Shown here in pieces: positions 20,950 to 56,943 of a DNA stretch of 64,000 nt. This DNA is from Escherichia coli 042 (GTDB lineage: Bacteria; Pseudomonadota; Gammaproteobacteria; Enterobacterales; Enterobacteriaceae). Within the stretch, counting starts at the first letter, position 1, and every line of letters starts with the position of its first letter. Position numbers and translations under genes: made by a program. Where the stretch lies: the NCBI RefSeq assembly GCF_000027125.1, contig NC_017626.1; one strand, 5' to 3'. The notes under the pieces were generated by a model. The model was given only the letters and a program-made list of their open reading frames with translations, did not search any database and had not been told where the DNA came from.

Positions 20950-21180
20950 ATGGATCAGGCGCTACTGGACGGGGGTTATCGCTGTTATACCGGCGAAAAG
21001 ATCGATGTCTATTTCAATACTGCGATATGTCAGCATTCTGGCAATTGCGTACGTGGCAACGGCAAGTTATTTAATCTCAAACGAAAGCCGTGGATCATGC
21101 CGGATGAAGTCGACGTTGCCACTGTGGTTAAAGTGATTGATACGTGCCCGAGCGGCGCGCTGAAATACCGTCATAAATAA
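20950..21180 (+). CDS. yjdI: YjdI small Cys-rich (Fe-S-type) protein
   Basis: 76 aa, [36 protein letters not shown]...[11 protein letters not shown]; same position as in K-12. Confidence 0.85.
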
Positions 21181-21191
21181 GCGAGGGTAAA

Positions 21192-21464
21192 ATGGAAATA
21201 CGCGAAGGCCACAATAAATTTTACATTAATGACGAACAGGGCAAGCAAATCGCTGAAATTGTCTTTGTGCCGACCGGAGAGAATTTAGCGATTATCGAAC
21301 ATACCGATGTCGATGAAAGCCTGAAAGGGCAAGGGATTGGTAAACAGCTGGTTGCGAAAGTCGTGGAAAAAATGCGTCGGGAAAAACGAAAAATTATCCC
21401 ACTATGCCCATTTGCGAAACACGAATTTGATAAAACGCGTGAGTATGATGATATTCGAAGTTGA
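21192..21464 (+). CDS. yjdJ: YjdJ GNAT-like small acetyltransferase-fold protein
   Basis: 90 aa, [27 protein letters not shown]...GQGIGKQLV...; starts 11 nt after yjdI. Confidence 0.85.
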
Positions 21465-21692
21465 TGGGAGAGTACAGAGTCACGATATTTTTCTTGCTCT
21501 CCGCGGTGTGATGCAGGAGAGTATCTGAAGGGTAGGGGGATGCACAAAGAATGGTCAGAGAGAGCGTTTTTTTGTCCCAAGTCATCCCCTTTACTGAGCA
21601 AAAAAAAAAGAATATCTCCTATATGAAAATCATCGATCGGGGTTAATAAGTTTTGCGTCCCCAGAGCGTTCAATATTGATAGGAGTCATATT

Positions 21693-21989
21693 ATGGAAGG
21701 TAAAAACAAGTTCAATACTTATGTTGTTTCTTTTGATTATCCATCATCTTATTCCTCAGTGTTCTTAAGGTTAAGATCATTGATGTATGATATGAATTTC
21801 TCCTCTATCGTGGCTGATGAATATGGGATACCACGACAATTGAATGAAAACTCCTTCGCAATAACGACATCGTTAGCCGCAAGTGAAATCGAAGATTTAA
21901 TCAGGCTTAAATGCTTAGACTTACCGGATATTGACTTTGACCTCAACATTATGACAGTTGATGATTATTTCCGTCAGTTTTACAAGTAG
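21693..21989 (+). CDS. ghoS: GhoS type V antitoxin (endoribonuclease)
   Basis: 98 aa, MEGKNKFNTYVVSFDYPSSYSSVFLRLRSLMYDMNF...; followed by ghoT. Confidence 0.9.
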   Translation: MEGKNKFNTYVVSFDYPSSYSSVFLRLRSLMYDMNFSSIVADEYGIPRQLNENSFAITTSLAASEIEDLIRLKCLDLPDIDFDLNIMTVDDYFRQFYK

Positions 21990-22016
21990 CCAGGAAGGAT
22001 AAGAAGAACATAAAAA

Positions 22017-22190
22017 ATGGCACTATTCTCTAAAATATTAATTTTTTATGTGATTGGTGTGAACATATCCTTTGTCATTATCTGGTTTATCTCACATGAG
22101 AAAACACATATTCGTTTACTTAGTGCATTCCTGGTCGGAATAACCTGGCCAATGAGTCTGCCTGTGGCATTACTTTTTTCTCTCTTTTAG
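22017..22190 (+). CDS. ghoT: GhoT small membrane-lytic toxin (57 aa)
   Basis: The ATG at 22017 encodes MALFSKILIFYVIGVNISFVIIWFISHEKTHIRLLSAFLVGITWPMSLPVALLFSLF* (two TM helices). Below the ORF-track cutoff; found by manual translation. Confidence 0.85.
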   Translation: MALFSKILIFYVIGVNISFVIIWFISHEKTHIRLLSAFLVGITWPMSLPVALLFSLF

Positions 22191-22265
22191 GAGCTGTAGT
22201 TGAGTGGACCCGCTGGTTATCTTGAAACGAAGCGTCTCTCCTCATAACTGGATTTGCGGAACGAC

Positions 22266-22300
22266 GAACGAAGCAGTCGCCTGACTGCTTCGTTCATTTA
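22266..22300. terminator. Hairpin between convergent ghoT and lysU
   Basis: gaacgaagcagtc-gcct-gactgcttcgttc (13-bp stem) followed by cattt on the plus strand. Confidence 0.45.
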
Positions 22301-22308
22301 AGTGAAAT

Positions 22309-23826
22309 TTATTTCTGTGGGCGCATCGCCGGGAAGAGAATAACGTCGCGAATAGTATGGCTGTTAGTAAACAGCATAATCATTCGGTCGATACCAATAC
22401 CCAGACCAGCGGTTGGCGGCAGACCATATTCCAGCGCAGTCACGTAATCTTCGTCATAGAACATGGCTTCGTCGTCACCTGCAGCTTTAGCGTTAACCTG
22501 TTCCTGGAAACGTTCAGCCTGATCTTCTGCGTCGTTTAATTCGCTAAAACCATTACCGATTTCACGACCACCGATGAAGAATTCAAATCGGTCGGTGATT
22601 TCCGGGTTAACATCATTACGGCGCGCCAGCGGAGACACTTCTGCCGGATATTCCGTAATAAAGGTTGGCTGAATCAGATGTGCTTCTGCCACTTCATCAA
22701 AGATCTCCGTAACAATACGTCCCAGACCCCAGCTTTTCTCTACCGTAATTCCGATAGATTCAGCTAATGCTTTAGCAGCATCAAAATTATCCAGGTCGGC
22801 CATATCGGTTTCTGGACGATATTTTTTGATTGCTTCGCGCATGGTGAGTTTTTCAAACGGTTTGCCGAAATCAAACACATGCTCGCCATAAGTGACTTTA
22901 GTGGTACCAAGAACCTCTTGTGCCAGGGTGCGGAACAGGGACTCCGTCAGTTCAATCAAATCGTGGTAATCCGCATACGCCATGTAGAGTTCCATCATTG
23001 TGAACTCAGGATTATGGCGAACAGAAATACCTTCATTACGGAAGTTACGGTTGATTTCGAATACCCGTTCAAAACCGCCTACAACCAGACGTTTCAGATA
23101 CAGCTCTGGCGCGATACGCAGGTACATATCTAAATCCAGAGCGTTATGATGGGTAATAAACGGGCGAGCAGATGCCCCACCTGGAATTACCTGCATCATC
23201 GGGGTTTCTACTTCCATAAAGCCGCGCGCGACCATGAACTGACGGATAGCGGCCAGAATTTTTGAACGGACAACAAACGTTTGACGGGATTTATCGTTAG
23301 CGATGAGGTCCAGATAACGTTGACGATAACGGACTTCCTGATCCTGCAGACCATGGAATTTATCTGGTAAAGGACGTAGTGCTTTAGTCAGCAGGCGCAG
23401 CTCAGTACAGTGAATGGAAAGCTCACCCGTTTGCGTCTTAAACAGCGTACCGCGGGCACCGATAATGTCACCCAGATCCCATTTTTTAAACTGATCGTTA
23501 TAAACACCTTCTGGCAGGCTATCTCTTGCAACGTACAGTTGAATACGGCCACCGACATCCTGCAACGTTACAAAGGAGGCTTTCCCCATGATACGACGGG
23601 TCATCATTCGGCCAGCAACCGAGACTTCAATGTTTAAGGATTCCAGTTCCTGGTTATCCTTCGCATCAAACTCTTCGTGCAACTGGTCAGAGGTATGGTC
23701 GCGGCGAAAATCATTGGGAAACGCCACACCTTGCTGACGTAGTGCCGCCAGTTTTTCGCGGCGATTTCTCAGTTCATCGTTAAAATCAATAGCCTCATTG
23801 GCTCCCCGTGTTTCTCGTTCAGACAT
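22309..23826 (-). CDS. lysU: LysU heat-inducible lysyl-tRNA synthetase
   Basis: ORF 22309-23853. The ATG at 23826 gives the 505-aa form [33 protein letters not shown]...; class II aaRS. The locus next to dtpC/cadA identifies lysU rather than lysS. Confidence 0.97.
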
Positions 23827-27805: not shown

Positions 27806-29140
27806 TTAATGTGCGTTAGACGCGGTGTGGTTATCCATTGAGTGGCTCTGGCGCTCGTGCATTTTGCGAGCGTAGAACATCAGAATAATCAGGCTGACGA
27901 TGAAGGTACCTGCCAGCTCGAAGGAGCTTGCGCCCATCAGCGCGATGAAGCAGAACACGCAACCCAGTACAGAGCAGATCAGGCTGACAAAGTTGCGGAT
28001 GTTAACGCCTTCAAAACGAATCAGGTCAACGCAAGAGTAGAAGTACGGCAGCATAGTCAGCAGTACTGCGATACCGGTCAGTTCACCGAACAGGTCAGAT
28101 GCTTTACCACCGGCAGAGTTCATCAGAGTGATGAGGATCATCAGGGCAGTCATTTTCACTGCAGCCAGCAGCAGACCTTTTTTCGGAATACCGTTGCTGT
28201 CGACTTCACCATAAACTTTCGGGAAGTTACCGTCGTTAGCGGCACGTACACCTGCCTGGCCTACCAACATCATCCAGGAGCCCAGAGAAGTCAGGCACGC
28301 AAAGGCGGTGAATGCAGAAACCAGCGGCGCAGCCCAGTTACCGAGGATAGTTGAAGCACTGATTGCAAACGGAGCACCGGAAGCTGCCATTACAGAAGAC
28401 GGATACATACCGGAAAGCACCTGAGTCGCAGCGATATAAACAATACCTGCTAAACCAGTACCCAGCATGGTTGCCAGCGGAACGGTACGTTTCGGGTTTT
28501 TAACCATACCAGTACTTACTGCTGCGGATTCAACACCCACGAAGGCCCACAGGCAGAGCAGAATACTTTTAATGATCGCATGACCATCAGTGGTATCCGC
28601 AGTATTCCAGTTAGCTGCATAAGTTGCAGCATCAAACCAATGCCAGCCAACAATAGCAGTCATCACCACAGGAATAAGAACCAGCACCAGACCAATAGTG
28701 GTTAAACGGCTTACCCAGGTACCGCCGAGCATATTTACAAAGGTAAATACCCAGACGATAGCAATACAGGCGATACCCGCCGGAACAGGATCATTTAATA
28801 CTGGGAAGAAGGTGGAAAGATAAGATACAGCGGTAATACCAATCGCCAGGTTACCAATCCAGTTAGCATGGTAATAAAGAACACCTGTCTGAAAACCAAA
28901 TGCAGGGGAAATTTCTCCGGCATAAGCAATTGGGCCACCTTGTTGCGGGTTTTTTGTTGCCAGTCGGGCATATACATACGCCAGCGACATTGCACCAATA
29001 ATAGAGATAATCCAACCCCAGATAGCAATACCACCGATACTTGCTAGGTTCGCAGGTAATAATGCAATACCGCTCCCCATCATATTACCGGCAACCACAC
29101 CGGTACAGGCAAATAGCCCGATCTTCTTGGCAGAACTCAT
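27806..29140 (-). CDS. cadB: CadB lysine:cadaverine antiporter
   Basis: 444 aa, [34 protein letters not shown]...; APC family. Confidence 0.97.
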   Translation of the reverse strand: MSSAKKIGLFACTGVVAGNMMGSGIALLPANLASIGGIAIWGWIISIIGAMSLAYVYARLATKNPQQGGPIAYAGEISPAFGFQTGVLYYHANWIGNLAIGITAVSYLSTFFPVLNDPVPAGIACIAIVWVFTFVNMLGGTWVSRLTTIGLVLVLIPVVMTAIVGWHWFDAATYAANWNTADTTDGHAIIKSILLCLWAFVGVESAAVSTGMVKNPKRTVPLATMLGTGLAGIVYIAATQVLSGMYPSSVMAASGAPFAISASTILGNWAAPLVSAFTAFACLTSLGSWMMLVGQAGVRAANDGNFPKVYGEVDSNGIPKKGLLLAAVKMTALMILITLMNSAGGKASDLFGELTGIAVLLTMLPYFYSCVDLIRFEGVNIRNFVSLICSVLGCVFCFIALMGASSFELAGTFIVSLIILMFYARKMHERQSHSMDNHTASNAH

Positions 29141-29345
29141 GCTCTTCTCCTAATTTCATTTTTGAATTTGGAGTCCGGGTCATGATGTATAACTATTTCC
29201 TGACCAGACCAAACTGGCGCTAAGAATACTCACGAAAAAAGGATTAATCCTAAAGATTAGGTGAAATAACACAAAAGTTTCTGTAAGTGAGAACTTGAGG
29301 TTTTTTATTAACACATCAGGATCGCAAGTTGATATCATGAAAAGA

Positions 29346-29362
29346 TAAACATTCAATGTTTA
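29346..29362. promoter_or_regulatory. Palindrome in Pcad, candidate CadC Cad1 site
   Basis: taaacat-tca-atgttta (7-bp perfect arms) lies about 214 bp upstream of the cadB ATG. Position and quasi-palindromic nature fit what is described for the Cad1 CadC-binding site. The transcription start was not determined here. Confidence 0.45.
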
Positions 29363-29505
29363 CAATGGATTGCGGGACATTTTCTGGTTAAATTTATGTA
29401 ATAAAAATTATGCGGCAAATAAATTGCCGCAACATATTATACCAACAGAAACATACAAAAACTCAACAATAAATATTGCCGAGCATAAATCAACCCGGGA
29501 GTTAC

Positions 29506-31044
29506 TTATTCTGAAGCGAGAAATTTGTCGAGATAAGGTACAACATAAGGAACAGAAGTCTGGAATATACCATTTTCAATCCAGTAAAGGGTGTTTGCCC
29601 CTGGGCGTAAATTAAAGGCGGTGAGATATGCATCAGCTGCTTCCCGGTTCATCCCCTTCATTTCATAAACCTTGCCAAGCAACACATAATTTAGCCAGGA
29701 CATTTCAAGATCAATGCCAGTATTTATCGCCTGGTAAGACTCATCTGTTTTACCTTTTACCAGAGCACTGACCGCTTTTATTTGATATATAATGGACAGG
29801 TTATTCAATTCCGGTAGTGTAACAATGTTATCTATTTCTGTGTTCAGTGCTGCTAATTGTTTTTCATCTAAAGGATGTTGAGAATGGCGCACGATATCAA
29901 CTAATGCTTTTTCTGCTCTCGCGTAGGTAAATTCTGGGGATGATTGAACAATCTCACCTAATAATTCACTGGCACGGTTCAATGATTTATCATCGCCATG
30001 CAGTAAATAATCATGTGCCTGATAAAAATTAGTTAATAACGCACCACGATGAGGCAAAATTTGCTGGAGCATCTCCTGCATTCGTTGTGGCCACGGTTGG
30101 TTTAACGCTTTTGATAAACTCTGGAGTAAATCATTTTGAATCGCCAGCTGATTACCGTTAGTGATGACATAACGTTTATCCAGCATGGTTGAACCATCTG
30201 CATTGTCTACCAATTTTACCGACATAAAGCATTGTTGAGCACGGTATTGGCGCTGATTAACAAACGCAATAGATAATGTTTTACCGGAACTGCTCGGTTC
30301 ATCAATGTTGTAGTTGATTTTGTCATGCACCATAAAGGTGGAGAAGGTGTTAAGTGATGTCGCCACCAAATCACCCACGCCTATCGCGTAAGAGAGCTGA
30401 TACGGGGAACTCCAGCTGTTACAACTTTTATTTACCATATTAATGTCAATATCGCGTGGATTGAGCAAAATACGCGATTTGCTCATCGGAAGACGTGTAT
30501 CAAGACTTGAAAACGCTACCAGTGCTACACAGATACCTAACGACAACAGGAAAAAAAACCATACCCAAAAGGTAGTGAATCGTTTGCTTTTAACTGGGGA
30601 TTGTTCAGGTGGCGTTGCGGTGTTTTGAATGTTAAGACTGTGGGAGGGAGAATCTGTGTCAGGAACCGCCTCTGGTATAGGGGGAGGCGAAGATAGCATT
30701 ATTTCCTCTCCCTCTTCTTCGCTGTACCAGATAACCGGCACCATTAATTTATAGCCGCGCTTTGGTACAGTAGCGATATAGACAGGACTATCTTCATCAT
30801 TATCTTTTAATGACTTACGTAGTTCTGAGATACTCTGCGTCACAACGTGATTGGTGACAATACTTCTCTTCCAGACATTATCGATAAGTTCATCCCTGCT
30901 AAGTACTTCGCCACTGTGTTGAGCAAAGAAAACCAGAAGATCGATTAATCTCGGCTCAAGGGTAAGTTGACGCCCATTGCGGCTAATTTGGTTTATGGAC
31001 GGAGTAACAAGCCATTCGCCAACGCGAACTACAGGTTGTTGCAT
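29506..31044 (-). CDS. cadC: CadC ToxR-like membrane-integrated pH/lysine-responsive activator
   Basis: 512 aa, MQQPVVRVGEWLVTPSINQISRNGRQLTLEPRLIDLLVFF... (winged-helix N-terminus), a single TM segment (FWVWFFFLLSLGICVALVAF) and a periplasmic sensor domain. Confidence 0.97.
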   Translation of the reverse strand: MQQPVVRVGEWLVTPSINQISRNGRQLTLEPRLIDLLVFFAQHSGEVLSRDELIDNVWKRSIVTNHVVTQSISELRKSLKDNDEDSPVYIATVPKRGYKLMVPVIWYSEEEGEEIMLSSPPPIPEAVPDTDSPSHSLNIQNTATPPEQSPVKSKRFTTFWVWFFFLLSLGICVALVAFSSLDTRLPMSKSRILLNPRDIDINMVNKSCNSWSSPYQLSYAIGVGDLVATSLNTFSTFMVHDKINYNIDEPSSSGKTLSIAFVNQRQYRAQQCFMSVKLVDNADGSTMLDKRYVITNGNQLAIQNDLLQSLSKALNQPWPQRMQEMLQQILPHRGALLTNFYQAHDYLLHGDDKSLNRASELLGEIVQSSPEFTYARAEKALVDIVRHSQHPLDEKQLAALNTEIDNIVTLPELNNLSIIYQIKAVSALVKGKTDESYQAINTGIDLEMSWLNYVLLGKVYEMKGMNREAADAYLTAFNLRPGANTLYWIENGIFQTSVPYVVPYLDKFLASE

Positions 31045-31334
31045 AATAGAAACTCATTCGAAAAGGGAATGATGCAATGATAATTGCCACAACCTATTTT
31101 TACCATCTATAGATGGGTTTATTTACATATTATTGGTGAATGCAAGACGTTATTTTTACCAGACATAAACTTCTTGATCACATAGTATTGAGAAAGGATT
31201 TTACTGAGAACCAGAAGTAATATTCCTTACCATCAAAATTCATCATCTTTGCCAAAGAAAAATGTTCAGAAAATAATCCATGGAAAATTGTCCGGAGCGC
31301 TTACTATTTTAATGGATTGTTAGTCTTTGCATGA

Positions 31335-31600
31335 GCAAGCGGACTGATACATTTCTCTTTGTTCTCATTCAGAAAATCTCATCAGTCGGCGTTCAGACCG
31401 GTGTTGTGCTTTATGGATGCGTTACGCTCCTGATGACGTCATTTGACATTCAACAGCATCACGGGGTCGCACGACATTTCACGTCAGTCAGCGCTATAGC
31501 TCAGGAACAAATTTTCCCGAATTGGGATATACCCGCAAAATGCTGGTGTTGTGGGGAGAATTTGGTTGAGTTCGGTAGAAATGATTTTTAGGCAGAACGC
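31335..31600 (-). pseudogene. P4-type integrase C-terminal remnant (yjdQ-like)
   Basis: Minus-strand translation gives broken fragments such as ...HQERNASIKHNTGLNAD* and RLMRFSE. These resemble the ...LSHSERNNVRAAYIH...ERRLMLQWW... C-terminus of P4-family integrases but carry frame breaks. K-12 carries an integrase-remnant pseudogene at this spot (recalled). Boundaries are approximate. Confidence 0.4.
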
Positions 31601-31621
31601 TTAAATTGTGGCGTCCTGAAA

Positions 31622-31650
31622 CGAAAAACGGACCTCCGTGGAGGTCCGTT
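31622..31650 (-). terminator. Original pheU rho-independent terminator
   Basis: The minus strand reads aacggacctcc-ac-ggaggtccgtt followed by ttttt, 10 nt downstream of the tRNA-Phe 3' fragment. Confidence 0.6.
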
Positions 31651-31660
31651 TATATGAATT

Positions 31661-31682
31661 TGGTGCCGGACTCGGAATCGAA
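31661..31682 (-). repeat. 22-nt 3'-terminal fragment of tRNA-Phe (pheU/pheV): island-distal att direct repeat
   Basis: tggtgccggactcggaatcgaa is the reverse complement of ...TTCGATTCCGAGTCCGG(G)CACCA, the acceptor/T-arm 3' end of E. coli tRNA-Phe with one C missing. The rest of the tRNA is absent, and unrelated AT-rich DNA follows at 31683. Confidence 0.8.
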
Positions 31683-31792
31683 AATTTCTTTTATCATATT
31701 GATATTAATATAATTTATTTGGTTTGATTAAAAATGTACCCTCAATTATACCCGCAGTCCCTTTTGATATCGAAAGGGAATCACACTCGGGA

Positions 31793-32635
31793 TCAGGCTG
31801 AGAGCACAGAAGGAAAGTACCTGGCTATTATATCGTTAATTCTGTCAATCAGTTCCAGCCTTTTGAAAGTGATGTGTGCAGATCCCTTCTTAAAGTATTT
31901 AATGATGAACATCTCGTCTTCATAGCGCTCTTTACCCTGAACGGACTGGATGTGACCATCCAGACGAATAGTGATGTTTTCCCGGTTGTCGGGGATCGGT
32001 TTGCCGCTGAACAGATGTAGCATTCTTTCCAGGTCGACGAGTCGGTCAGTCTGTTGCCCGGTGATAAGATGAAACCCCCACCGGTCCCACCTCACTAGGT
32101 TGTTGACGATAATTTTACTGCCAAATTTGCAGGGGCAATTGGTTTTGTAATTCCAGTTCAGTCCCCTGAAGACGTTGATCACCCCTCGCTCAAACACCTC
32201 ATCCTTATTCTGGTGTAGTTGTTCAAATGTGCTCAGAATGTTCGCTTCACTGATTTCCGGAAAATTATCGTGCTCCAGTGACCGGTACCATGTATCACGG
32301 GCCTGTGCATCCATTAAGGAAAGCATCCCTGAACGTTGCATCAGGTCACGCCAGATTTCGCGATCGAGATTGCGTGTGATGGCTTTCATTGCGGTTTCCG
32401 GTTTCTCCATCAGCCAGCAGCCGCAGCGAAAATCCTGTTTCATGGCCCAGTCCGGGGCGGCTTTACCGCCAATACTTTCTGTCATTGCTGATATTTCAGC
32501 CAGTTGCCGGATAAGTGTGTCGATTTGCAGCAGTGTACTCTTTCGTACAGCCAGAATGTGGCGGATACTGGTTGAGCAGATAACGTCCGTATGCCCGGTG
32601 ACCACTTCCGGACGGGAGATTGTGATGTCTGACAT
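31793..32635 (-). CDS. DUF4942-family protein (terminal gene of CP4-like elements)
   Basis: 280 aa, MSDITISRPEVVTGHTDVICSTSIRHILAVRKS.... Family recognised from memory of the gene that follows cbtA/yeeW in such elements; not verified. Confidence 0.6.
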   Translation of the reverse strand: MSDITISRPEVVTGHTDVICSTSIRHILAVRKSTLLQIDTLIRQLAEISAMTESIGGKAAPDWAMKQDFRCGCWLMEKPETAMKAITRNLDREIWRDLMQRSGMLSLMDAQARDTWYRSLEHDNFPEISEANILSTFEQLHQNKDEVFERGVINVFRGLNWNYKTNCPCKFGSKIIVNNLVRWDRWGFHLITGQQTDRLVDLERMLHLFSGKPIPDNRENITIRLDGHIQSVQGKERYEDEMFIIKYFKKGSAHITFKRLELIDRINDIIARYFPSVLSA

Positions 32636-32719
32636 TATCGGTTTCCCTTTTGGTTTATAAACGAAAACGCCAGCCCTGTTCAGGCTGACGTCAGTGGAAT
32701 GAAGTATGGTGAGTGATAT

Positions 32720-33142
32720 TTACCGGTTCTGGTGCAGAAGCTGCAGATGACGAAGAGTACGGACATCCTCCCGGGCCTGTTCGATACAGGGCAACAGTGC
32801 TACCGAATCCGTTTTATCCTCATCGTTGTCAAAGATAATTCCCGATTCGCAGTCGATATTGTCCTGCAGCCACGCAATGAGGATATCCAGCGCTGTTTCA
32901 GTGGTTAATGGCATCACGCTCTGTATCACTGTATTGTCTTCCGGCAACTGATGAGGGCTGGCAGAAGTCGCCGGTGTTTCGGTAGCGTCACGTTCATTCA
33001 CCACGCGGAGTGAATAACCGTTTTCAGCGACTTTGTTAATCAGTTCAGCGAGCTCAATACCATCGACGTCAACGACAATGCGCCCCATGTTCAGCGCCTG
33101 CGCATTAATGCTGTCGGCTTCCAGCGTCAGGGCCAGTTTCAT
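32720..33142 (-). CDS. YeeW-like protein downstream of the CbtA toxin
   Basis: 140 aa, MKLALTLEADSINAQALNMGRIVVDVDGIELAELINKVAENGYSLRVV...; its start overlaps the cbtA stop by 4 nt. Confidence 0.55.
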   Translation of the reverse strand: MKLALTLEADSINAQALNMGRIVVDVDGIELAELINKVAENGYSLRVVNERDATETPATSASPHQLPEDNTVIQSVMPLTTETALDILIAWLQDNIDCESGIIFDNDEDKTDSVALLPCIEQAREDVRTLRHLQLLHQNR

Positions 33143-33516
33143 TGTTTCGCCCCCGGATGTTTACCCAGGGTAATGTTATTTACCGTTCTGTAGTTGTCGC
33201 GTGTCATCAGGCCGGTTGCCCGGCGTGCCCGGAGAATATCAATGCTGTTGATTAACTGCGACGGGGCTCCTGCGCTGAATCCCGGCTGGTCGGTACGTAC
33301 CAGCGCGTATTTTTCAACGAGAAAGTTCACCGCGTCACACAGTGAAATCCCTGCCTCAATATGCTGCTCAATCACACGTTCATCAGCGAACGGTGTGTCA
33401 TTCAGCGTGAGGCCATAGTGCTGGTCCAGCAGTCGGGTGAGCAGTGTCTGCCAGATGGTGATGGGAGACGGGCAGCCCGATGCCTCCCGTACGTGAGTGT
33501 CGGGTAATGTATTCAT
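33139..33516 (-). CDS. cbtA: CbtA/YkfI/YpjF-family toxin (FtsZ/MreB inhibitor)
   Basis: ORF 33139-33621. The family N-terminus MNTLPDTHVREASGCPSPITIWQTLLTRLLDQHYGLTLNDTPF... begins at the ATG at 33516 (125 aa). Confidence 0.85.
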   Translation of the reverse strand: MNTLPDTHVREASGCPSPITIWQTLLTRLLDQHYGLTLNDTPFADERVIEQHIEAGISLCDAVNFLVEKYALVRTDQPGFSAGAPSQLINSIDILRARRATGLMTRDNYRTVNNITLGKHPGAKQ

Positions 33517-33562
33517 CTTAAGTTCTCTGTAACAGGTGGTTATAAAGGGGAGATATCCGGTG

Positions 33563-33940
33563 TTATACGGTGGTTGCGGGCGCTGCCGGTGTCGGATAAA
33601 CAGCCAGATAAACGTAACCACAGGAGCCGAGGGTGTCGGCTTCGCAGGTCAGCCCTTTCGCATACAGTGTCACGGTATGCTGATGGCGGGGATTCAGTTC
33701 ACCACTGGTGAGCATGAGCTCCAGTTGTTTCATCAGCAGCGGAAAGGCCTGGTCCAGGTGGTATGCATCTGCATCGCTGAACCGGCCTCTGATACCGGCG
33801 CGGTCGGCAAGGTAATGCAACCGGTTACCCTTCTGCACCAGACGTGCCCCGAAACAGGGCGTCACGGTGCAGGGCAGTCCCCACCAGAGGCGGTCGTGAT
33901 TGTCGTCGGGAGGCGTTGTCCCGGGGAGTGTGTCTGACAC
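33563..33940 (-). CDS. cbeA: CbeA/YeeU-family antitoxin
   Basis: 125 aa, MSDTLPGTTPPDDNHDRLWWGLPCTVTPCFGARLVQKGNRLHYLADRAG...; directly upstream of cbtA. Confidence 0.85.
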   Translation of the reverse strand: MSDTLPGTTPPDDNHDRLWWGLPCTVTPCFGARLVQKGNRLHYLADRAGIRGRFSDADAYHLDQAFPLLMKQLELMLTSGELNPRHQHTVTLYAKGLTCEADTLGSCGYVYLAVYPTPAAPATTV

Positions 33941-34019
33941 GATAAAGTCCTCACAGAAAATCGGTTAAGAATGGTCCGGTAGTGGCGATAATTCTGCTCA
34001 TCAGAATTCCCTTCCAGAC

Positions 34020-34241
34020 TCAGTTCAGGGTGACGCTCATCAGCCGGACATACGGACCAAAACTGTCCTTACGGCGTTCTGCAAACACAGCCAGTACACC
34101 GGGAATATCCTGCACTTCACGGCCGGTATATGTATCCGTGCTACCGTGCCAGCGGTATTTACCGGTACAGAACGGAAAAAGACGGGATGCAGGATGCTGA
34201 CGGTGAATACGCATGGCTTCACCACGGGTGATGATTTTCAT
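34020..34241 (-). CDS. YeeT-like DUF987 protein
   Basis: 73 aa, MKIITRGEAMRIHRQHPASRLFPFCTGKYRWHGSTDTYTGREVQDIPG... Confidence 0.8.
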   Translation of the reverse strand: MKIITRGEAMRIHRQHPASRLFPFCTGKYRWHGSTDTYTGREVQDIPGVLAVFAERRKDSFGPYVRLMSVTLN

Positions 34242-34327
34242 GAGAATAGTCCTCCTGAATGTGAAAGTAAGAAACAGCTGAGAAAGAGAAACTGAAGTGA
34301 TATGAAGGTGATTGTGACGGTGACGGG

Positions 34328-34804
34328 TTAAAGCAGACCGTGTTCCGCAAAGGAGAAAACCTGGCTGCCACCGACTATCAGATGGTCCGGTACCCGGATA
34401 TCAACCAGGGCCAGTGCCTGTACCAGACGCTCAGTGATAAGGCGGTCTGCCTTGCTGGGGGGGACTTCACCGGACGGGTGATTGTGCGCCAGCACCACGG
34501 CAGCGGCATTGTGGTACAGGGCGCGTTTAATCACTTCCCGGGGATGGACTTCCGTACGGTTGATGGTGCCGGTGAAGAGGGTTTCACCGGCAATCAGCTG
34601 ATTCTGGTTGTTCAGATACAGCACCCGGAACTCTTCACGCTCCAGTCCCGCCATGTTCAGAATCAGCCATTCCCGTGCCGCATGCGTGGAGGTGAAGGCC
34701 ACGCCGGGTTCATGAAGATGGCGGTCCAGGGTTTTCAGGGCCCGCTGAATGAGGCTGCGCTCGCCGGGTGTCATCTCTCCGGGCAGAAAGGAAAGTTGTT
34801 GCAT
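34328..34804 (-). CDS. RadC-like JAB/MPN domain protein (YeeS family)
   Basis: MQQLSFLPGEMTPGERSLIQRALKTL... with the JAMM motif HNHPSG. The ATG at 34804 has the SD GGAGAG. An alternative ATG at 34819 abuts the upstream stop. Confidence 0.88.
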   Translation of the reverse strand: MQQLSFLPGEMTPGERSLIQRALKTLDRHLHEPGVAFTSTHAAREWLILNMAGLEREEFRVLYLNNQNQLIAGETLFTGTINRTEVHPREVIKRALYHNAAAVVLAHNHPSGEVPPSKADRLITERLVQALALVDIRVPDHLIVGGSQVFSFAEHGLL

Positions 34805-34819
34805 TGTGCTTCTCTCCAT

Positions 34820-35293
34820 TCAATCGATGATGCGCATAATGGCGCTGCATTCCGGATGCTGCAGGGCGTAATCCCGCAGCCGGTAATAATGGACCGTCAT
34901 GGCATAACACTCCGTACGACAGGCATGATGACTGTACGTCATCAGACAGGCGGCAATGCCGGCGGCTTCCGGGCTCATTTCAGCGCGGTTACCGTTCATG
35001 GCATTGAACAGTACCCAGTTTTCGCCATCATCGTCATCCGGTTCGGGTGCCATAAATGCCCCGCCGTTGTTCAGGGTGTACAGATTCCAGATACCACCGC
35101 AGTAGTTTTCGCAAAGACGGTCCATCCAGCCGAAGACACGGGGCTCCAGGGTCACCCACTGTGGAATGAGGCCAAAGTGCTGCGGCCAGAAACTGATACG
35201 TTGTTCATCAGGGACGAGGCTGGCAACCAGTTGTTGCAGGTCAGTCTCCGGTGCTGAGACCGAAGAGGTGGTGTTCTGAGACAATGTTTTCAT
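34820..35293 (-). CDS. Antirestriction protein, KlcA/ArdB (YfjX) family
   Basis: 157 aa, ...RISFWPQHFGLIPQWVTLEPRVFGWMDRLCENYCGGIWNLYTLNNGGAFMAPE...; typical of CP4-type elements. Confidence 0.8.
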   Translation of the reverse strand: MKTLSQNTTSSVSAPETDLQQLVASLVPDEQRISFWPQHFGLIPQWVTLEPRVFGWMDRLCENYCGGIWNLYTLNNGGAFMAPEPDDDDGENWVLFNAMNGNRAEMSPEAAGIAACLMTYSHHACRTECYAMTVHYYRLRDYALQHPECSAIMRIID

Positions 35294-35594
35294 ATGTGAA
35301 ATCCTTGTAGTGTGAATAAATGCGAGGAAGTAAAGGTCGGGTGGCTGATAACATCACGTTCATCACTGACCGTGAGACCCGGTAATATCAGGGATGAATG
35401 ATATTCGGCTGAAATTCCGGACAGCCGTACGCGTAACCGTTCCGGTCACAGACGGATGGCCTGATGCCATTGCCTGTACTCAGTCTGCACAGACTGATTT
35501 CTCCGGGACGGTAAAGCAGACGGGTATACCAGGCGCACAGGTCATCATCAGAAATGGAACGACATCCCGGCAGCGCCTTCAGGGACAGGCTGCA

Positions 35595-36413
35595 TCAGCG
35601 CAGGCTCTCCAGCAGCGTTTCCGCCATCACCCACAATGCGCGGTTGAGCTTAATATCGGTGTCGATGCTGTGAATGGCACGGGTGTGGATACGTTTTCCT
35701 CTGGCACTGCGACCGGAAATCCCGCCTTTCAGCATATTCTCCTGGATGGTCTGATAAGTACTCCACAGGTCCTTACCGTAATCCTCCCTGCGTCGCGGTG
35801 TCAGAATGTCAGCGGTGGTGACGGGCTGATGTTCGTCACCATAACGGTAAGTCAGTGCCGCCTGTGCCAGCGCCTGGCGTGCCGGTGGCGGCAGAATCAG
35901 CGACTGCATGGCATCACGCTTTTCCTCAATCCGGTCAAAAACCCCCACCACCTCGTAAGCCCCTTCAATGACTCTGTCCACCACATTTCCCCGGTGCGGA
36001 ACACGCACTTCCCCCAGAGACTGACCACAGACGCATCCGTTCTGGCAGACGAACCTGAAGTAACCCGGCAGCATCTGGTAGCTGGAGGTACCGTCATGAG
36101 AGTTGAGCAGAATAATTTCAGGGAAATGTTCTCCGTTTATCTCTCCGGCCCGCCGCAGACGCAGCATGTGTTTTGTGTATCCCCGGCGGCCCGGGTCGCG
36201 CACACGGGTCTGGCAGGCGAAGAATGGCTGAAAGCCTTCCCGCTGCAGGCTTTCCAGTACGGTGATGGTGGGGATGTACGTATAGTTCTGGCTTCGGGAC
36301 GTGTGTTTATCTTCCCCGAAAATCCCCGGCACATAGTGCATCAGTTCTTCGTGTGTCAGCGGACGGTCACGGCGTATCTGGTTCGCATAACCAAAACGAC
36401 TGGCTAGTCGCAT
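35595..36413 (-). CDS. DUF932 protein (YfjQ/YafZ family)
   Basis: 272 aa, MRLASRFGYANQIRRDRPLTHEELMHYVPGIFGEDKHTSRSQNYTYIPT... Confidence 0.8.
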   Translation of the reverse strand: MRLASRFGYANQIRRDRPLTHEELMHYVPGIFGEDKHTSRSQNYTYIPTITVLESLQREGFQPFFACQTRVRDPGRRGYTKHMLRLRRAGEINGEHFPEIILLNSHDGTSSYQMLPGYFRFVCQNGCVCGQSLGEVRVPHRGNVVDRVIEGAYEVVGVFDRIEEKRDAMQSLILPPPARQALAQAALTYRYGDEHQPVTTADILTPRRREDYGKDLWSTYQTIQENMLKGGISGRSARGKRIHTRAIHSIDTDIKLNRALWVMAETLLESLR

Positions 36414-36824: not shown

Positions 36825-37280
36825 TCAGTTAACGTTTTTTCCGGAAACGGTAATTAGCAGTGGATGGTAGTCCTGGGGATCGAAAACCGATAACGGCAGA
36901 CTGACACGATGGCCGTTACTTTCTTCAGTTGCTTTAATGATTTCGGTTGTGGCGACATTTTCCACGCACTCCGTTTCCAGAAATGCGTCTGTGGTTCGCG
37001 TGGCATTACTGTCACCAAAAGCTTCCGTTTCCATTTTTCTGGTCACCAGCGTCTGACCATATTTGTCTTTGAGTTGCAGAGTGATGGTGAGGGGGCCAAA
37101 CCCTTCATCGTTTCCGCCATTATCCAGCCGGAACTGGTAAGCACAAATATTTCCCGGGAGCCATATCGTATCTGTATTGCGTATACTGATGTAACGTTGA
37201 TCCTGTGCCCGGAGTGGGGCAGACCACGTTAACCCCAGAATGAAGGCGGTAATCATGCAGGTTTTGAACAGGTGAATCAT
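36825..37280 (-). CDS. Small exported protein next to yeeR/flu (possibly the IrmA family)
   Basis: 151 aa with a clear Sec signal peptide, MIHLFKTCMITAFILGLTWSAPLRA|QD. Size and location beside Ag43/yeeR fit my recollection of UPEC IrmA, but I cannot verify the sequence identity. Confidence 0.55.
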   Translation of the reverse strand: MIHLFKTCMITAFILGLTWSAPLRAQDQRYISIRNTDTIWLPGNICAYQFRLDNGGNDEGFGPLTITLQLKDKYGQTLVTRKMETEAFGDSNATRTTDAFLETECVENVATTEIIKATEESNGHRVSLPLSVFDPQDYHPLLITVSGKNVN

Positions 37281-37355
37281 GGTATTTACCTCTCTGAATC
37301 ATGACGATGACACTGACAAGTCAGGTGATAAAACGTAAAAGGTGCAGAATACTCG

Positions 37356-39878
37356 TTATGCCGGTAACTCCGGGGGTAATGCTTCTTCCAGCCGGTTAAC
37401 CATATTGCCGAGATGGGATGCATCATATTCCATGACGGGGCGTTGCCTGATGATACTGACCACCAGTGGTTTGATTAACATATTGGTCGCGGCCCGTTGT
37501 TGTATACCGGCGGCGAAAATGATCTCCAGAGCATTCTGATCGATAACACGGGCCAGATTCGCGTTCAGATTTTCTGTTTCATGTCCGGTCAGCAGGAAAC
37601 TGCCGGCAAGCCATGTCACCTGTTCCTGAATCATTGCCAGAATTTTGACGCGATCTTCTTCAACCAGCGCTCCGGCAATTTTTCCTGATACAGCGGAGGC
37701 AATCATTCCCCCCAGAACACCGCCAACCACACGCCCTGTCAGTGCACCAAATGGTCCCAGTGGACTGAACAGTATCCCGCCCGCCACTGACCCGACAGCT
37801 CCACCTGCCACACCGGAAGATGCCACGGCAAGATTCCTGATGAACTGCGTACCGGAGATCCGTCCCCGCAACATTTTGATCATGTCAGGGCCGGTTGTGA
37901 CAGCTACCAGTGCCAGAGATGTCACCAGCGTACCCTTCATCACTTTGTTCAGGGCACTGATATTTCCTGTACCGGTCCCCTTCTGAAGAGCCAGTCGGAC
38001 AGTCGGACTGGCCGTCGAAAAATCAATGTGCTTCAGCATACCCTGAACAACACTGAGCCGGTGAAGTTGCTGGGTTGTGACGTAGACAGCCAGTGTGCGG
38101 GTGAAGGTTTTTCCTGCCTGGACAGCAGCTGTCTGCAGGGCAGCATCGCGATCGCCGGTGCTGAGCCAGAAGACCGATGCCGTCAGGGCAAAACTGATCC
38201 CTCCGGCCGCCAGACTGACAACCGAACCCTCGGCAATATCATAAGTGACCGATTCGATGGTCCCGAACCGGGTGATATTACGGGCCTGGGTATAAGTCAG
38301 ATGTCCCCGACGAATCAGCCGGGACGCTTCTGCGGGATCGGTTACACCAGGTACTTTACCTTCGCGGATCTTATTCCTCATGGTTTCAACAGCGCCGGCA
38401 TACTGATCACGGGGGACTTCCAGTTGCATGGGGCCATGATTTCCCATGTAACGATACTGTCCGTTTTGTCCGTCGAATGCCGCACCGACGCTACGGGCTG
38501 CAGTTGAACAATATTTCGTCTGGATCTCTGTTCCGCTGACCAGTCTGTCTGCTCCATTTCTGGCATTATTATCACCGAGGATCCGTGCGTTTTTCAGACG
38601 GACTCTGTCGACAATATGGTTTCCCCGTTCAGCGGCAAACCCATGTCCCTGCCCTCCGGAAGCAAACATTTTCTCATTTGTACTCCAGGTTTCCGGCAGT
38701 TTCATGAGAATCAGACCATTCGCCGTTGCATCGGAAATAAAACTGTTGTAGGGGCGTTCATAAATTTCCTGACACAGTGTTTCTGTTTCGCGACAAAGAG
38801 AGGAGCAGTACCATTCCGGATCCGGCTTATGATTTTCCGGGGCATGATGTACTTCTGTCAGCCCGCAGGAGGCACAGATACGAAGCTCATCCACGTGATG
38901 GAATGATACAAAACGGCGACCTTCTGAAAAGGGATACCAGTCACCGCCGTCCAGGCAACGATCGAGAAAATCGTCATTCGCTTCCGGTGATAAATTCAGG
39001 CGGTTCCGGAAGAGGGTTTTCAGTTCATCAGGGGTAAATGACAGGCTCTCTCTCAGCTTTTCGTTGAAACCCGCCATGTTTCTTTCATACCAGGCATTGT
39101 CCAGTAGCCAGTTTCCGTCTGCCAGTTCAAATTCCCTCAGTTCTCCCCGGGAAATCCGTTGTGAAATGAGTGTCAGCCAGATGCGCTCCGTCAGCGTTTC
39201 AGGAAGGCTGTAATCGTTTTGCAAACTGCTCAGCCATGATTTACTGTTGAGCACCGGTTGTTCTTCCAGTGTCTGGCTGATGGCACTGGTCAGTCTTTTC
39301 AGCGCCTGGATCTGGCTGGCCGCCCATAGCAGCGTCACTAATGCAGCCAGCCAGTACAACAACCCGCCCCACCACATCAGTGAGGGTGAAATATCGAACT
39401 GCAATGCGATCAATGGTGCGTATGCAGAACACGCCATAAGGAAAAAGGCAGTATAAAAACAGCAGTAATACCCGTTAATTTCCTTGCTGATATCTTCAGG
39501 TGTGAGCCCGTTCTGCTGAATGGTTCTTATCTGCACGGGAAGAGCCAGCAGACCAGCGGCGAGAGCGGTGGTCAGAATAAATTTTACAGAGTCAAAAGTA
39601 TGAGCCTCCAGTGCGATATGTTTACCATCAAGTCCCCACATGAAGCTGATGATCATTCCGGCAATCGTCAGAAATACGCCTGCCAGCCAGCGAATATGGA
39701 ATAACCGGGTTATGCGTTCAGTGATATAGCCAGCCAGTAAAGCCGGACCGAACAGACACAGCAATATGAACCCTGCCAGCGCAGACGCTGTGCTGGTTAA
39801 TGCTCTGAACAAAAGGCGAAGAATGGCAAATCCTGCGATCAGCAGAATCAGCGCGCCGACTATCTGTAACATAGTCAC
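37356..39878 (-). CDS. YeeR-like polytopic inner-membrane protein (long, 840-aa form)
   Basis: N-terminal and C-terminal clusters of hydrophobic helices with Gly-rich stretches (GGVLGGMIASAVSGKIAG). The central soluble part has a Cys cluster, CASCGLTEVHH...WYCSSLC. It sits immediately downstream of flu, as yeeR does in CP4-44. Confidence 0.7.
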   Translation of the reverse strand: MTMLQIVGALILLIAGFAILRLLFRALTSTASALAGFILLCLFGPALLAGYITERITRLFHIRWLAGVFLTIAGMIISFMWGLDGKHIALEAHTFDSVKFILTTALAAGLLALPVQIRTIQQNGLTPEDISKEINGYYCCFYTAFFLMACSAYAPLIALQFDISPSLMWWGGLLYWLAALVTLLWAASQIQALKRLTSAISQTLEEQPVLNSKSWLSSLQNDYSLPETLTERIWLTLISQRISRGELREFELADGNWLLDNAWYERNMAGFNEKLRESLSFTPDELKTLFRNRLNLSPEANDDFLDRCLDGGDWYPFSEGRRFVSFHHVDELRICASCGLTEVHHAPENHKPDPEWYCSSLCRETETLCQEIYERPYNSFISDATANGLILMKLPETWSTNEKMFASGGQGHGFAAERGNHIVDRVRLKNARILGDNNARNGADRLVSGTEIQTKYCSTAARSVGAAFDGQNGQYRYMGNHGPMQLEVPRDQYAGAVETMRNKIREGKVPGVTDPAEASRLIRRGHLTYTQARNITRFGTIESVTYDIAEGSVVSLAAGGISFALTASVFWLSTGDRDAALQTAAVQAGKTFTRTLAVYVTTQQLHRLSVVQGMLKHIDFSTASPTVRLALQKGTGTGNISALNKVMKGTLVTSLALVAVTTGPDMIKMLRGRISGTQFIRNLAVASSGVAGGAVGSVAGGILFSPLGPFGALTGRVVGGVLGGMIASAVSGKIAGALVEEDRVKILAMIQEQVTWLAGSFLLTGHETENLNANLARVIDQNALEIIFAAGIQQRAATNMLIKPLVVSIIRQRPVMEYDASHLGNMVNRLEEALPPELPA

Positions 39879-39992
39879 TCCGTGATGAATATCATGTTAT
39901 TGTGAATGCCAGTGAATGTGGCACTGAAATGTTTTCCCCCGTCCGGGTCCCGGTCATGATGACCGGAACCACAGAGAGGCAATGCAGAATTA

Positions 39993-42900
39993 TCAGAAGG
40001 TCACATTCAGCGTGGCCTGACTGTTATAACCTTCAGCGCTGCTGCCGCTGACGCTGTGGGCATAACCGGCCTGAACGCCCAGGGTGATATTTTCCCGGAC
40101 ACGGGCTTCCAGTCCGGCCTGCAGATCCAGTGAAGTGCCATTCTGTGAGGGAGAGAACGTCATCCCGCTGCCTGCGGTGGAGGTCCCCACACGCATATCA
40201 CCCCGGGAGCTGAAGGTGCGGATAACGGAAGGCTGTACCCACCAGTTCACCGGCAGTTCACGCACACTGTGTTTTGCACTGTCACGCAGGGGGGCACGGG
40301 ATGAGGTGCCTTCACCAAAGGTCATATCGTTGTGGCTGCCCAGACGGAAACCGGCACGCACATGTTGTGCACTGCCATGCCCGAACTTCACATAACCGGC
40401 GTTGTCCTTACCGTCATCCAGCGAAAGCCCCTGCCAGGTGTACTGCAGCCGTGGCTCCAGCATCAGGTTGTCAGTAATACTGAAGGGCAGACCGGTTTCC
40501 AGTGAGCCCAGCCAGCCCCAGCCCCGTGCGCGGAAGTCGTTATTGCCCGATGACGCTTTCATACTGTGGCGGGTTCCCTGTGCCACAATGTCAGCCCACA
40601 GGCCGGAGGAGGTGTGTGTCAGGTTCATATATCCGCCCAGGCTGCCGGCATCATCCCGGACCGTGCCGGCGCGGGAGCCGTCATCATCCTTAACATCAAC
40701 GGAAGAATGGCCTGCAGCACCATACACTCCTGTCGTCAGTGACATACCGGCGACCTCTGTTCTGAGCAGGTCACCCTCCAGACGGACGAAGCCATAGCTG
40801 CCGCTGCTTTCCGGCGTGGCCCCACGGGCAATACCGCCGTTGTTATCGTGACCGAGATGGCCGCCCTGAATGCTGAGACGGACGCTGTTATTTTCACCGT
40901 TTACACCGGTCTGATGGCTGCGTGAGCCTGCCAGAATCCGGTCATAGTCCATTGCCTGTGTCAGCATGGAGGCGTACAGGGGGACTTCAGCACGATAACG
41001 TTCTTCACTGCGCAGATACCAGCTCTCATCACTGTCCCGGTTGAGGGTGTAGTTAAAGGCCCCGGCCTGCAGCATATTCCCCTGGACAAAAGCCCCTTCC
41101 TCCGTGGTGGCACCGTTAATGGCCTCAACCACCTGAATACCCTTACCGGTGGTCGCCAGCCCCGTACCACTGTTGCCGGCGTTCACCAGATTCAGGATGG
41201 TTTTTCCGGTTGCCCTGCCACCGTCAATGACCAGTCTGTCAGCATTGTTCTGCGCCATATCCGGGCGTACACGCAGGCTGATGGTGCCATTCTGCCCGTT
41301 CAGGTTTTTCACCTGCAGGGTTGCCGGTACGAACTTCCCTGTGCGGGTGGAGGTGAAATGAATCTGTCCGGCATGGCTGAGGTCATCCACCACCGACTGC
41401 ACCGTGGCGTTATCAGGGATATTCCAGGTGGCACCGGATGTCAGGGTGACATTCGTGGGGTCAATGGCACCGTTCAGCACTGTGCTGCCGGTCAGCTTCA
41501 GGGCCGTGCCGCGCTGAGCGATGACATCCGTGGTGACGGTACTGTCGTTCAGCGTCAGCGTGCCTTCATTCAGGTTGACGGTTTTCTGGGTGAGTGTGGT
41601 GTTGCTGACAGTGAGTGTGCCACTTCCTGATTTTTCCACCCTGCCGTTACCGGTAAGAGCGCCTCCCTGCAGGAGTGCATCACCTTCACGGATGGTCAGG
41701 GTATCGTTATTCACCGTTTTCCCGGAAAGGGTAAGCGTGGCACCGTTATTCAGCGTGGTGGTGCCCGCCAGCGAGCCCCCTCTGGCAGTGAACAGTCCGC
41801 CATTTACCGTGGTATCCGTGGCCGTATCACCGGCGTTCAGCGTGAATGAACTGCCTTTTTCCAGCATCAGGGCATCCGCCTGACCGCCCCCGATACGGAA
41901 TGCCGTTCCGTCGCTCCGGGTACCACTGACAGCGGCCCCGGAATCGGCCAGCAGTACACCGCCATTCCCCATGGATACGGTGGTGGCGGCACCACCGTTG
42001 CGGACATCCAGCGTTCCGCCATCATCCACACGGGTATTAGTGGCTGTGTGTCCGCTCAGCACATCCAGACGTCCGCCATTTTCCAGTACGACATTATCAG
42101 CCTTACCCGCCAGAACGGAGAATGCTCCCAGGCGGTTTGTGCCGGTGACGGTTGCAGCTGTGCTGGTAACCAGTGCACCTCCCGTGTTCTGGGTGACATC
42201 AGACGCTTTACCGCCGGCATTCACCTGCAGCTTTCCTTTCTGGTTGATGGTGGTATGCGCGGTAGTTCCTCCTTCCTTAATCACCTGCCAGCCCCCCTCG
42301 TTAATTACCGTGTTCAGCGCAAGTCCGTATTTGTGCACATACTGGTTTCCTCCCTCCAGCCGGGTGTTATGTGCCTCGCCGTGTACCGTCTGGTCACCGC
42401 CGGCGTAAATGAGGGTGTCCCGTGCCATCCCCGAAGACCAGATAACCTGCCGGCCATTTTTGTTGATGGTGGTGGATTCAGCCGTCCCTCCGACCATCTG
42501 ACCGCTGGACACATTTTCAGACTCCGGACCACCTTCTGCACCGGTGTTGACGATGGTTCCGGTTGCCTGCCCGCCATGTTTAATGGTCTGGTAGCCAGAC
42601 TGGTTAATCACCGTTCCGGATGCACTGCCGCCTGCATGTATCCATTGTTCACCACCGTTAAGGACAGTACCGTAAGCCTGCCCGCGCAGATTCTGTCCTC
42701 CACCGGCACTGATAACCGTATCCGTGGCACTGCCACCTGCCATGACATCCTGCAGACCGTTTGCGGTGACCGTGGTGTTTCTGGCAGTGCCACCCCGGGC
42801 TATCTGCTGACCGCCGGTGTTGTCATCAGAGTCCGGCCCCAGCTCAAGCCCGGTACTGACAGTCACGCCATCAGCTGTTCCGGATACAAACTGGTTGTCA

Positions 42901-43112
42901 TGGTTTACCAGTGTTCCGCCATTCACTGTTTCACCCGGGTGCACAACGATGTCAGCAGCCAGCACCGGGAGTGACGTGACTGCGGCAAGAGACAGTGCAA
43001 CCGCCACACCGCCACGTTTACCCCGTGCGCGGGCCAGTTCGGAGGCAACCACGAAAGCGCCCGTAATGTGATTCCATACCAGCCTGTAGCAGGTATTCAG
43101 ATGTCGTTTCAT
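39993..43112 (-). CDS. flu: Antigen 43 self-associating autotransporter adhesin
   Basis: ORF 39993-43118. Extended autotransporter signal peptide MKRHLNTCYRLVWNHITGAFVVASELARARGKRGG..., a repetitive G/T/N-rich beta-helix passenger, and a C-terminal beta-barrel ending ...QATLNVTF. Confidence 0.95.
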   Translation of the reverse strand: MKRHLNTCYRLVWNHITGAFVVASELARARGKRGGVAVALSLAAVTSLPVLAADIVVHPGETVNGGTLVNHDNQFVSGTADGVTVSTGLELGPDSDDNTGGQQIARGGTARNTTVTANGLQDVMAGGSATDTVISAGGGQNLRGQAYGTVLNGGEQWIHAGGSASGTVINQSGYQTIKHGGQATGTIVNTGAEGGPESENVSSGQMVGGTAESTTINKNGRQVIWSSGMARDTLIYAGGDQTVHGEAHNTRLEGGNQYVHKYGLALNTVINEGGWQVIKEGGTTAHTTINQKGKLQVNAGGKASDVTQNTGGALVTSTAATVTGTNRLGAFSVLAGKADNVVLENGGRLDVLSGHTATNTRVDDGGTLDVRNGGAATTVSMGNGGVLLADSGAAVSGTRSDGTAFRIGGGQADALMLEKGSSFTLNAGDTATDTTVNGGLFTARGGSLAGTTTLNNGATLTLSGKTVNNDTLTIREGDALLQGGALTGNGRVEKSGSGTLTVSNTTLTQKTVNLNEGTLTLNDSTVTTDVIAQRGTALKLTGSTVLNGAIDPTNVTLTSGATWNIPDNATVQSVVDDLSHAGQIHFTSTRTGKFVPATLQVKNLNGQNGTISLRVRPDMAQNNADRLVIDGGRATGKTILNLVNAGNSGTGLATTGKGIQVVEAINGATTEEGAFVQGNMLQAGAFNYTLNRDSDESWYLRSEERYRAEVPLYASMLTQAMDYDRILAGSRSHQTGVNGENNSVRLSIQGGHLGHDNNGGIARGATPESSGSYGFVRLEGDLLRTEVAGMSLTTGVYGAAGHSSVDVKDDDGSRAGTVRDDAGSLGGYMNLTHTSSGLWADIVAQGTRHSMKASSGNNDFRARGWGWLGSLETGLPFSITDNLMLEPRLQYTWQGLSLDDGKDNAGYVKFGHGSAQHVRAGFRLGSHNDMTFGEGTSSRAPLRDSAKHSVRELPVNWWVQPSVIRTFSSRGDMRVGTSTAGSGMTFSPSQNGTSLDLQAGLEARVRENITLGVQAGYAHSVSGSSAEGYNSQATLNVTF

Positions 43113-43143
43113 CAGCATTTCCTTAATCAGAGTGAGGGTGAAT

Positions 43144-43177
43144 AAAAAAGCCGGTATCCACAGATGTGGATACCGGC
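43144..43177 (-). terminator. Intrinsic-terminator-like hairpin inside the flu 5' leader
   Basis: The minus strand reads gccggtatccac-atct-gtggataccggc followed by tttttt, about 30 nt upstream of the flu start codon. Confidence 0.55.
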
Positions 43178-53372: not shown

Positions 53373-53393
53373 TTTAACGGATTACGAGAGAAA

Positions 53394-56941: not shown

Positions 56942-56943
56942 CC

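Follow-up and report, generated by a model that had tools for sequence, protein, structure and literature searches.

The locus analysed here raises the question of why a short piece of a tRNA-Phe gene lies beside cadC, and whether it was left behind by the chromosome or brought in by the island that adjoins it. The window, i.e., the whole stretch of DNA that was analysed, is 64,000 nucleotides long. The piece, TGGTGCCGGACTCGGAATCGAA, occupies positions 31661-31682 on the minus strand and corresponds to the last 23 nt of pheU/pheV with one C missing; both the string match and the alignment with K-12 confirmed this claim of the preliminary description of the DNA. The junction is made up of the following features:

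Positions 29506-31044, minus strand: cadC, the first conserved chromosomal gene left of the junction (ORF list, annotation of relatives, K-12 alignment).
Positions 31626-31651, minus strand: hairpin with a T-tail, predicted terminator of the K-12 pheU type (terminator scan, fold energy, K-12 identity).
Positions 31661-31682, minus strand: block read as attR, the 3'-terminal 23 nt of tRNA-Phe from T-loop to CCA, one G short in the GGG run.

The alignment with K-12 MG1655 was near-identical from cadC through the spacer and the hairpin and went on over the final 23 nt of pheU, where one gap was needed (CCC to CC); the identity broke off directly past ...CGAA. The cadC ATG at 31044 is 617 bp away from the start of the block at 31661, and the offset in K-12 is identical, so that the fragment sits at the K-12 position of pheU, as had been proposed. 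K-12 was used as the empty-site reference, in which cadC, yjdQ, pheU and dicD are contiguous, and the window departs from it after the block. The 22-mer occurred only once in the window, even with three mismatches permitted. ARAGORN reported zero tRNA genes across the whole 64 kb, an intact pheU included, while Rfam over positions 30900-32100 returned nothing beyond one meaningless sub-threshold match. The best junction-spanning matches among complete E. coli genomes were HSP60 (99.6%) and UPEC69 (99.5%). The direct repeat of the tRNA 3' end at the island-distal boundary covers 22 of 23 nt and is placed exactly where collinearity with K-12 breaks. We therefore regard the 22-mer with high confidence as attR, i.e., as the direct repeat at the island-distal side of a P4-integrase-family genomic island inserted in the 3' end of pheU. 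An island-distal att repeat at a core/island junction is also what the preliminary description had seen here.

The hairpin consists of an 11-bp stem with six GC pairs, followed by a T-rich tail (UUUUUCGUUU), and the scan called it terminator-like. Its fold energy was -25.1 kcal/mol (z = -4.6), more stable than 200 out of 200 shuffles, and the combination of a GC-rich hairpin and a U-tract is that of a predicted Rho-independent terminator. The hairpin is identical to the one in K-12, in agreement with the earlier view that the original pheU terminator was kept on the cadC side, and the gene piece upstream of it is now only the 22-nt tRNA scrap. Near-identical copies of the hairpin with its arm were found after the intact tRNA-Phe at the integrase end of the islands in UPEC69 (at pheU) and 55989 (at pheV), while the empty pheV of K-12 has a different terminator, which argues that the hairpin arm is island-borne. 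The terminator had also been called orphaned. This is correct for its place beside the scrap but not for its function, since the island provides the rebuilt pheU with a hairpin that is nearly identical.

The cadC side of the junction, although treated as core, is not pristine. It carries an integrase relic and an old arm:

Positions 31254-31504, minus strand: relic of a P4-type integrase, yjdQ of K-12 (tblastn, blastn, K-12 and RefSeq annotation).
Positions 31528-31660, minus strand: old arm on the integrase side, the leader that runs from the tRNA end to the integrase (89% against the arm of the present island).

In the relic, the start region of the integrase (31468-31497; IALTDVKCRA against MALTDAKIRA) is fused to the C-terminal part of approximately 60 codons (31307-31463), and codons from approximately 11 to 358 are deleted. 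When the UPEC69 integrase was compared by tblastn with the whole window, amino acids 359-420 matched (E = 4e-8), i.e., a short relic and no intact copy. In blastn the relic was 87% identical to the start of the integrase and 68% to its 3' end; the stretch matching the start is 31482-31504. The annotation at this place is pseudogene yjdQ in K-12 and frameshifted integrase in relatives in RefSeq. The stretch 31528-31682 aligned by blastn with the UPEC69 attL at 89% over 156 nt (E = 2e-55). In pheU islands the flanking repeats reach approximately 155-210 bp at approximately 89% identity, i.e., beyond the 22 nt, because the older relic arm was already present. Judged from these alignments, the K-12 spacer between pheU and cadC, with hairpin, leader and yjdQ, appears to be what remains, in decayed form, of the integrase-proximal end of an older P4-type element, and as the leftover of an earlier element it would make the locus a record of two successive integrations. 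An ORF of 86 aa at 31331-31591 was set aside as likely spurious, as it belongs to no family and is antisense to the integrase relic. A literature search on yjdQ returned nothing.

On the other side of the block the sequence had been said to switch abruptly to AT-rich DNA. Approximately 100 bp (31650-31749) do have a GC content of 25%, but the spacer on the cadC side is itself at 29-34% GC and the island beyond is at 50-59%. Dips to 39-45% GC were also seen at 8001-9000, 21001-23000 and 29001-30000, in the left, otherwise core half of the window (mel to cad). The island side of the window contains:

Positions 31683-31792, no strand: short AT-rich non-coding island end (25% GC at 31650-31749).
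Positions 31793-36413, minus strand: distal end of the island, a CP4-44-like 'yee' module with DUF4942, DUF5983, CbtA toxin, CbeA antitoxin, RadC, antirestriction and DUF932 genes (Pfam and UPEC69 annotation).
Positions 36825-44357, minus strand: IrmA-family protein, YeeR-like membrane protein, antigen 43 autotransporter (39993-43118) and GTPase (Pfam, annotation).
Positions 47600-47878, minus strand: AlpA-family helix-turn-helix protein (Pfam Phage_AlpA, E = 9e-9).
Positions 52851-64000, plus strand: Sci-1-type T6SS cluster with tssB, tssC, tssK, tssL, an OmpA-family gene, hcp, tssH and vgrG (UPEC69 annotation, 100% identical DNA).

CP4-like genes had been noted on this side, and those from DUF4942 through DUF932, together with Ag43, are present. 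The AlpA-family gene is a possible candidate for an excision/directionality or regulatory factor of the island. It is placed in an AT-rich stretch of 34-38% GC (listed as the patch 45000-47000), in which an IS1 scrap is also found, and is followed by an hha homologue at approximately 48505-48717. The Sci-1 cluster leaves the end of the window and includes an immunity-like lipoprotein gene. A megablast comparison with 5,426 complete E. coli genomes showed the island DNA at 100% identity in 55989, HH35 and others. The island is an enteroaggregative-type element, of which 55989 has a copy at pheV; its content comprises an integrase, pic, the Aai/Sci-2 and Sci-1 T6SS, Ag43 and the CP4-44-like 'yee' module ending in the DUF4942 gene. 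Of the T6SS genes and pic, the window itself contains Sci-1 from tssB through vgrG; Aai/Sci-2 and pic, as well as Tle1/Tli1, were read only in the continuation of the island in UPEC69.

The occurrence of the island at a second tRNA-Phe gene allowed both of its ends to be compared. 55989 and HH35 have the same island at pheV, where it ends distally in exactly the same deleted 22-mer, to which the K-12 pheV flank is attached. Between the pheV and pheU copies the integrase protein does not differ, the attL regions have 0 mismatches in 1536 nt, and the distal end of the window differs from that of the 55989 pheV island at 0 of 3000 nt counted from the block. An alignment of both repeats, which the preliminary description had suggested as a check, was done at pheU and pheV in relatives, and in the copies examined every attL has the intact 23-mer and every attR is one base short. 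The same element at alternative tRNA-Phe genes (pheV in 55989 and HH35, pheU in the window and UPEC69) points to a probable site-specific mobility. Table 1 of PMC11537424 (PLoS Genet 2024) lists attR as TTCGATTCCGAGTCCGG-CACCA, with a dash for the deletion, for many GI-pheV. The same paper gives 3,339,841-3,450,350 as the position of GI-pheV in 55989, and the coordinates found here match these.

The missing base is thus real, as first described, but it is not private damage of one copy, for 868 E. coli genomes and the pheV copies share the deletion. Among E. coli genomes with this island end, the exact deleted attR was counted in these 868, versus 44 with the perfect 23-mer, the deleted form making up 95% of the attR sites with this island end. 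Perfect 23-nt attR with the same DUF4942 end were seen, e.g., in SUISSEKPC3NDM5 and G3/10, and at least one of them is located at pheV beside yghD. Outside E. coli, 30 species-representative genomes from across Enterobacterales contained the deleted block; the island ends in them are conserved and the left flanks are varied, and at some of these loci it directly adjoins a P4-like integrase. The species include members of Xenorhabdus, Pectobacterium, Yersinia, Klebsiella, Erwinia, Pantoea, Edwardsiella and Sodalis; the block is 22 nt long in some and reaches to the anticodon stem (about 45-50 nt) in others. Pantoea sp. IMH (locus 2749-2770) has a seemingly full-length tRNA-Phe-like copy with the same deletion, and an intact block within the same 8-kb locus. 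The viral contigs scanned for the deleted block gave no match, and so no free attP carrying it. The intact block was found in viral contigs once, in the provirus-like IMG/VR UViG_2531839006_000011, which is not a clean attP. This contig (1-1510) contains an integrase with 98.8% identity to that of the island, the hairpin arm and then an intact 49-nt 3' piece of tRNA-Phe. The piece stops at the anticodon stem, and the tRNA-Phe may have been split there by a second element with a site in the anticodon loop.

We consider it probable that the one-base-deleted block was carried in the attP of the island and is not a displaced chromosomal end, because one and the same island shows the deletion at two different tRNA-Phe genes, whereas its attL is intact. 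On integration, the integrase would recombine the attP of the island with the tRNA gene. On the attL side the chromosome would retain an intact tRNA-Phe, followed by the hairpin-containing arm of the island and the integrase gene (beyond 64 kb), and on the attR side the far island end would abut the tRNA-like block, joined to the former downstream flank. With the deletion in attP, strand exchange would have to take place past the G-run and before the point at which the sequences cease to be identical:

Positions 31651-31667, no strand: inferred recombination interval (attL/attR comparison at pheU and pheV).

The left limit of the interval is an SNP of the arm at 31650 (old-type T versus island-type G), and the right limit is the deletion in the CC(C) run. 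In the pheV copies the identity ends at CCA, which would narrow the exchange to 31661-31667 (TGGTGCC, i.e., GGCACCA in tRNA sense). The attP would accordingly have the form ...GAGTCCGG-CACCA joined to an island arm of the ccgttGatatgaatt type, and in the attB the K-12 arm would adjoin GGG. If the integrase excised the island, perhaps assisted by the AlpA-like protein, an intact pheU with a K-12-type flank would be restored; the deletion would persist since, in this reading, excision is not hindered by it. For the Phe-tRNA islands in general we incline to the view that the attR block is an attP segment with an old one-base deletion, inherited across many genera of Enterobacterales.

The usual description of such repeats is different, as attR is commonly regarded as a displaced fragment of the target gene (PMC4383910). 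The preliminary description followed this model, according to which the 22-mer represents the native 3' end of pheU, pushed aside in favour of one from the island, the crossover took place at the T-loop edge and the missing C is a later mutation in a functionless scrap. The identity block does begin exactly in the T-loop, as is described for this integrase group (preprint 10.1101/2020.11.02.365908), the left flank is K-12-like as far as the block, and the perfect repeats in 44 genomes, like the general model itself, speak for it too. However, the same deletion is present at pheV and pheU beside island DNA without a mismatch in 3000 nt; the time since these copies split is therefore short and an independent recurrence is improbable. 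The predominance of the deleted form with this island end points in the same direction, and so does the finding that in the approximately 30 species the deletion is linked to the sequence of the island end and not to the chromosomal flank. In the published table, attR alleles also track the integrase allele (PMC11537424). Altogether we find the displacement of a chromosomal end unlikely as the source of this block, although the possibility deserves to be kept in mind. The deletion may also have recurred, or have spread via tandem integration and subsequent homologous deletion between identical yee modules.

Two further routes were considered and rejected. Homologous replacement of a resident pheU island was ruled out as the source of the shared deletion, as the island end in the window equals the pheV copy up to the block and another pheU island, that of NRZ106056, already departs from it at a distance of 27 nt from the block. 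After an inversion between pheU and pheV, cadC would not adjoin the distal end. A literature search for experimental att mapping of the she PAI or of pheV islands found nothing accessible.

The opposite end of the island is outside the window. The island of UPEC69 continues with Tle1/Tli1, the Aai/Sci-2 T6SS, group II introns, IS elements, pic and a helicase/methylase cluster, and its far end, approximately 119.6 kb (~120 kb) from the block, consists of a tyrosine integrase, an intact tRNA-Phe and dicD (yjdC). HSP60, in which the far end was located using the K-12 distance from pheU to mutL, has the same arrangement at approximately 75 kb. ARAGORN identified an intact tRNA-Phe(GAA) in both genomes, and the far-end integrase has the P4-family domain set of Arm-DNA-bind_3, Phage_int_M and Phage_integrase. 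A restored pheU and a P4-family integrase had been predicted beyond 64 kb; neither is in the window and both are at the far end in HSP60 and UPEC69, which by analogy supports the same arrangement for the island studied here. The two islands differ by approximately 45 kb in length and in the integrase allele (WP_001218773.1 in HSP60 versus WP_001218809.1 in UPEC69), and a second integrase scrap is found within the island of HSP60. The interior of the island is mosaic, although the ends are shared between HSP60 and UPEC69.

The junction could in principle be a dead scar, where pheU was truncated and lost, the far end has neither intact pheU nor integrase and the island is a fixed remnant; a loss of pheU would be tolerable because pheV encodes the same tRNA. 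The far end lies outside the window, HSP60 has internal integrase scraps and a shorter island, and many GI-pheV are without one end or have degraded integrases (PMC11537424). Nevertheless, in both of the examined genomes that share this junction and island, the tRNA-Phe is intact and the integrase full-length, and we judge the dead scar to be quite improbable. That a chance resemblance or an assembly artefact is behind the 22-mer is scarcely conceivable, as 0 of 100 dinucleotide shuffles contained a match, the position relative to cadC is exactly that of K-12, and the identical junction occurs in 184 complete genomes.

The closest known system is GI-pheV of 55989 (intP4.5 type; PMC11537424). 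Its integrase protein equals WP_001218809.1 of the UPEC69 pheU copy, the distal 3 kb are identical, the cargo comprises pic, two T6SS, Ag43 and the yee module, and its attR is the one-base-deleted form of the published table. It differs in being inserted in pheV beside yghD, whereas the island in the window is in pheU beside cadC, and in that its attR abuts the unrelated pheV terminator, so that the repeat is only the 22/23-mer and not the longer one of pheU islands. A 117-kb pheU pathogenicity island with two T6SS has been described in EAEC 042 and 17-2 (Dudley et al., 2006, as cited in PMC2808357 and PMC6730261). It resembles the present island in the pheU site, in having the Sci-1 and Aai/Sci-2 T6SS, and in size, the UPEC69 copy being approximately 120 kb. 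EAEC 042 was not among the top junction matches, which come from a collection without the source genome, and the island is, judged by these matches, probably nearer to the 55989 version. CP4-44 of K-12 (flu, yeeR-yeeW) has Ag43, YeeR-like, antirestriction, RadC/YeeS, YeeU/CbeA and YeeV/CbtA genes in the same order. Here they form only the terminal module of a much larger tRNA-Phe island, a module known as the flu/yee module (PMC11537424). With systems of the type of satellite phage P4 and CP4-57 the island shares the integrase architecture (Arm-DNA-bind_3, central and catalytic domains), an AlpA-family gene, an integrase gene directly downstream of the target tRNA and a short repeat of the tRNA 3' end. 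It is unlike them in that no P4 replication or packaging functions were seen and in that the target is tRNA-Phe, not leuX or ssrA.

The junction is already known and ordinary; with the site, the island type and the one-base-deleted attR all in print, nothing new is learned from it about the biology of such islands. Mildly new are two points, namely that natural variation was used to map the crossover and that the pheU flank of K-12 is traced to an element. In practical terms, the junction shows where a large island with virulence and competition genes (Ag43, two T6SS) has one of its boundaries, and the identified integration site aids island typing and the design of excision PCR. The natural variation between pheU and pheV, between the 868 and the 44 genomes and across the approximately 30 species suggests where the integrase exchanges strands. 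If this is true, P4-type integrases would do so in the terminal approximately 7 nt (GGCACCA) and not at the T-loop edge of the identity block. Likewise, if the spacer beside cadC is an integrase-proximal relic, the repeats of 155-210 bp around pheU islands could also support RecA-dependent loss, and the pheU terminator of K-12, together with its pheU-cadC spacer, would have come from an earlier element belonging to the same family.
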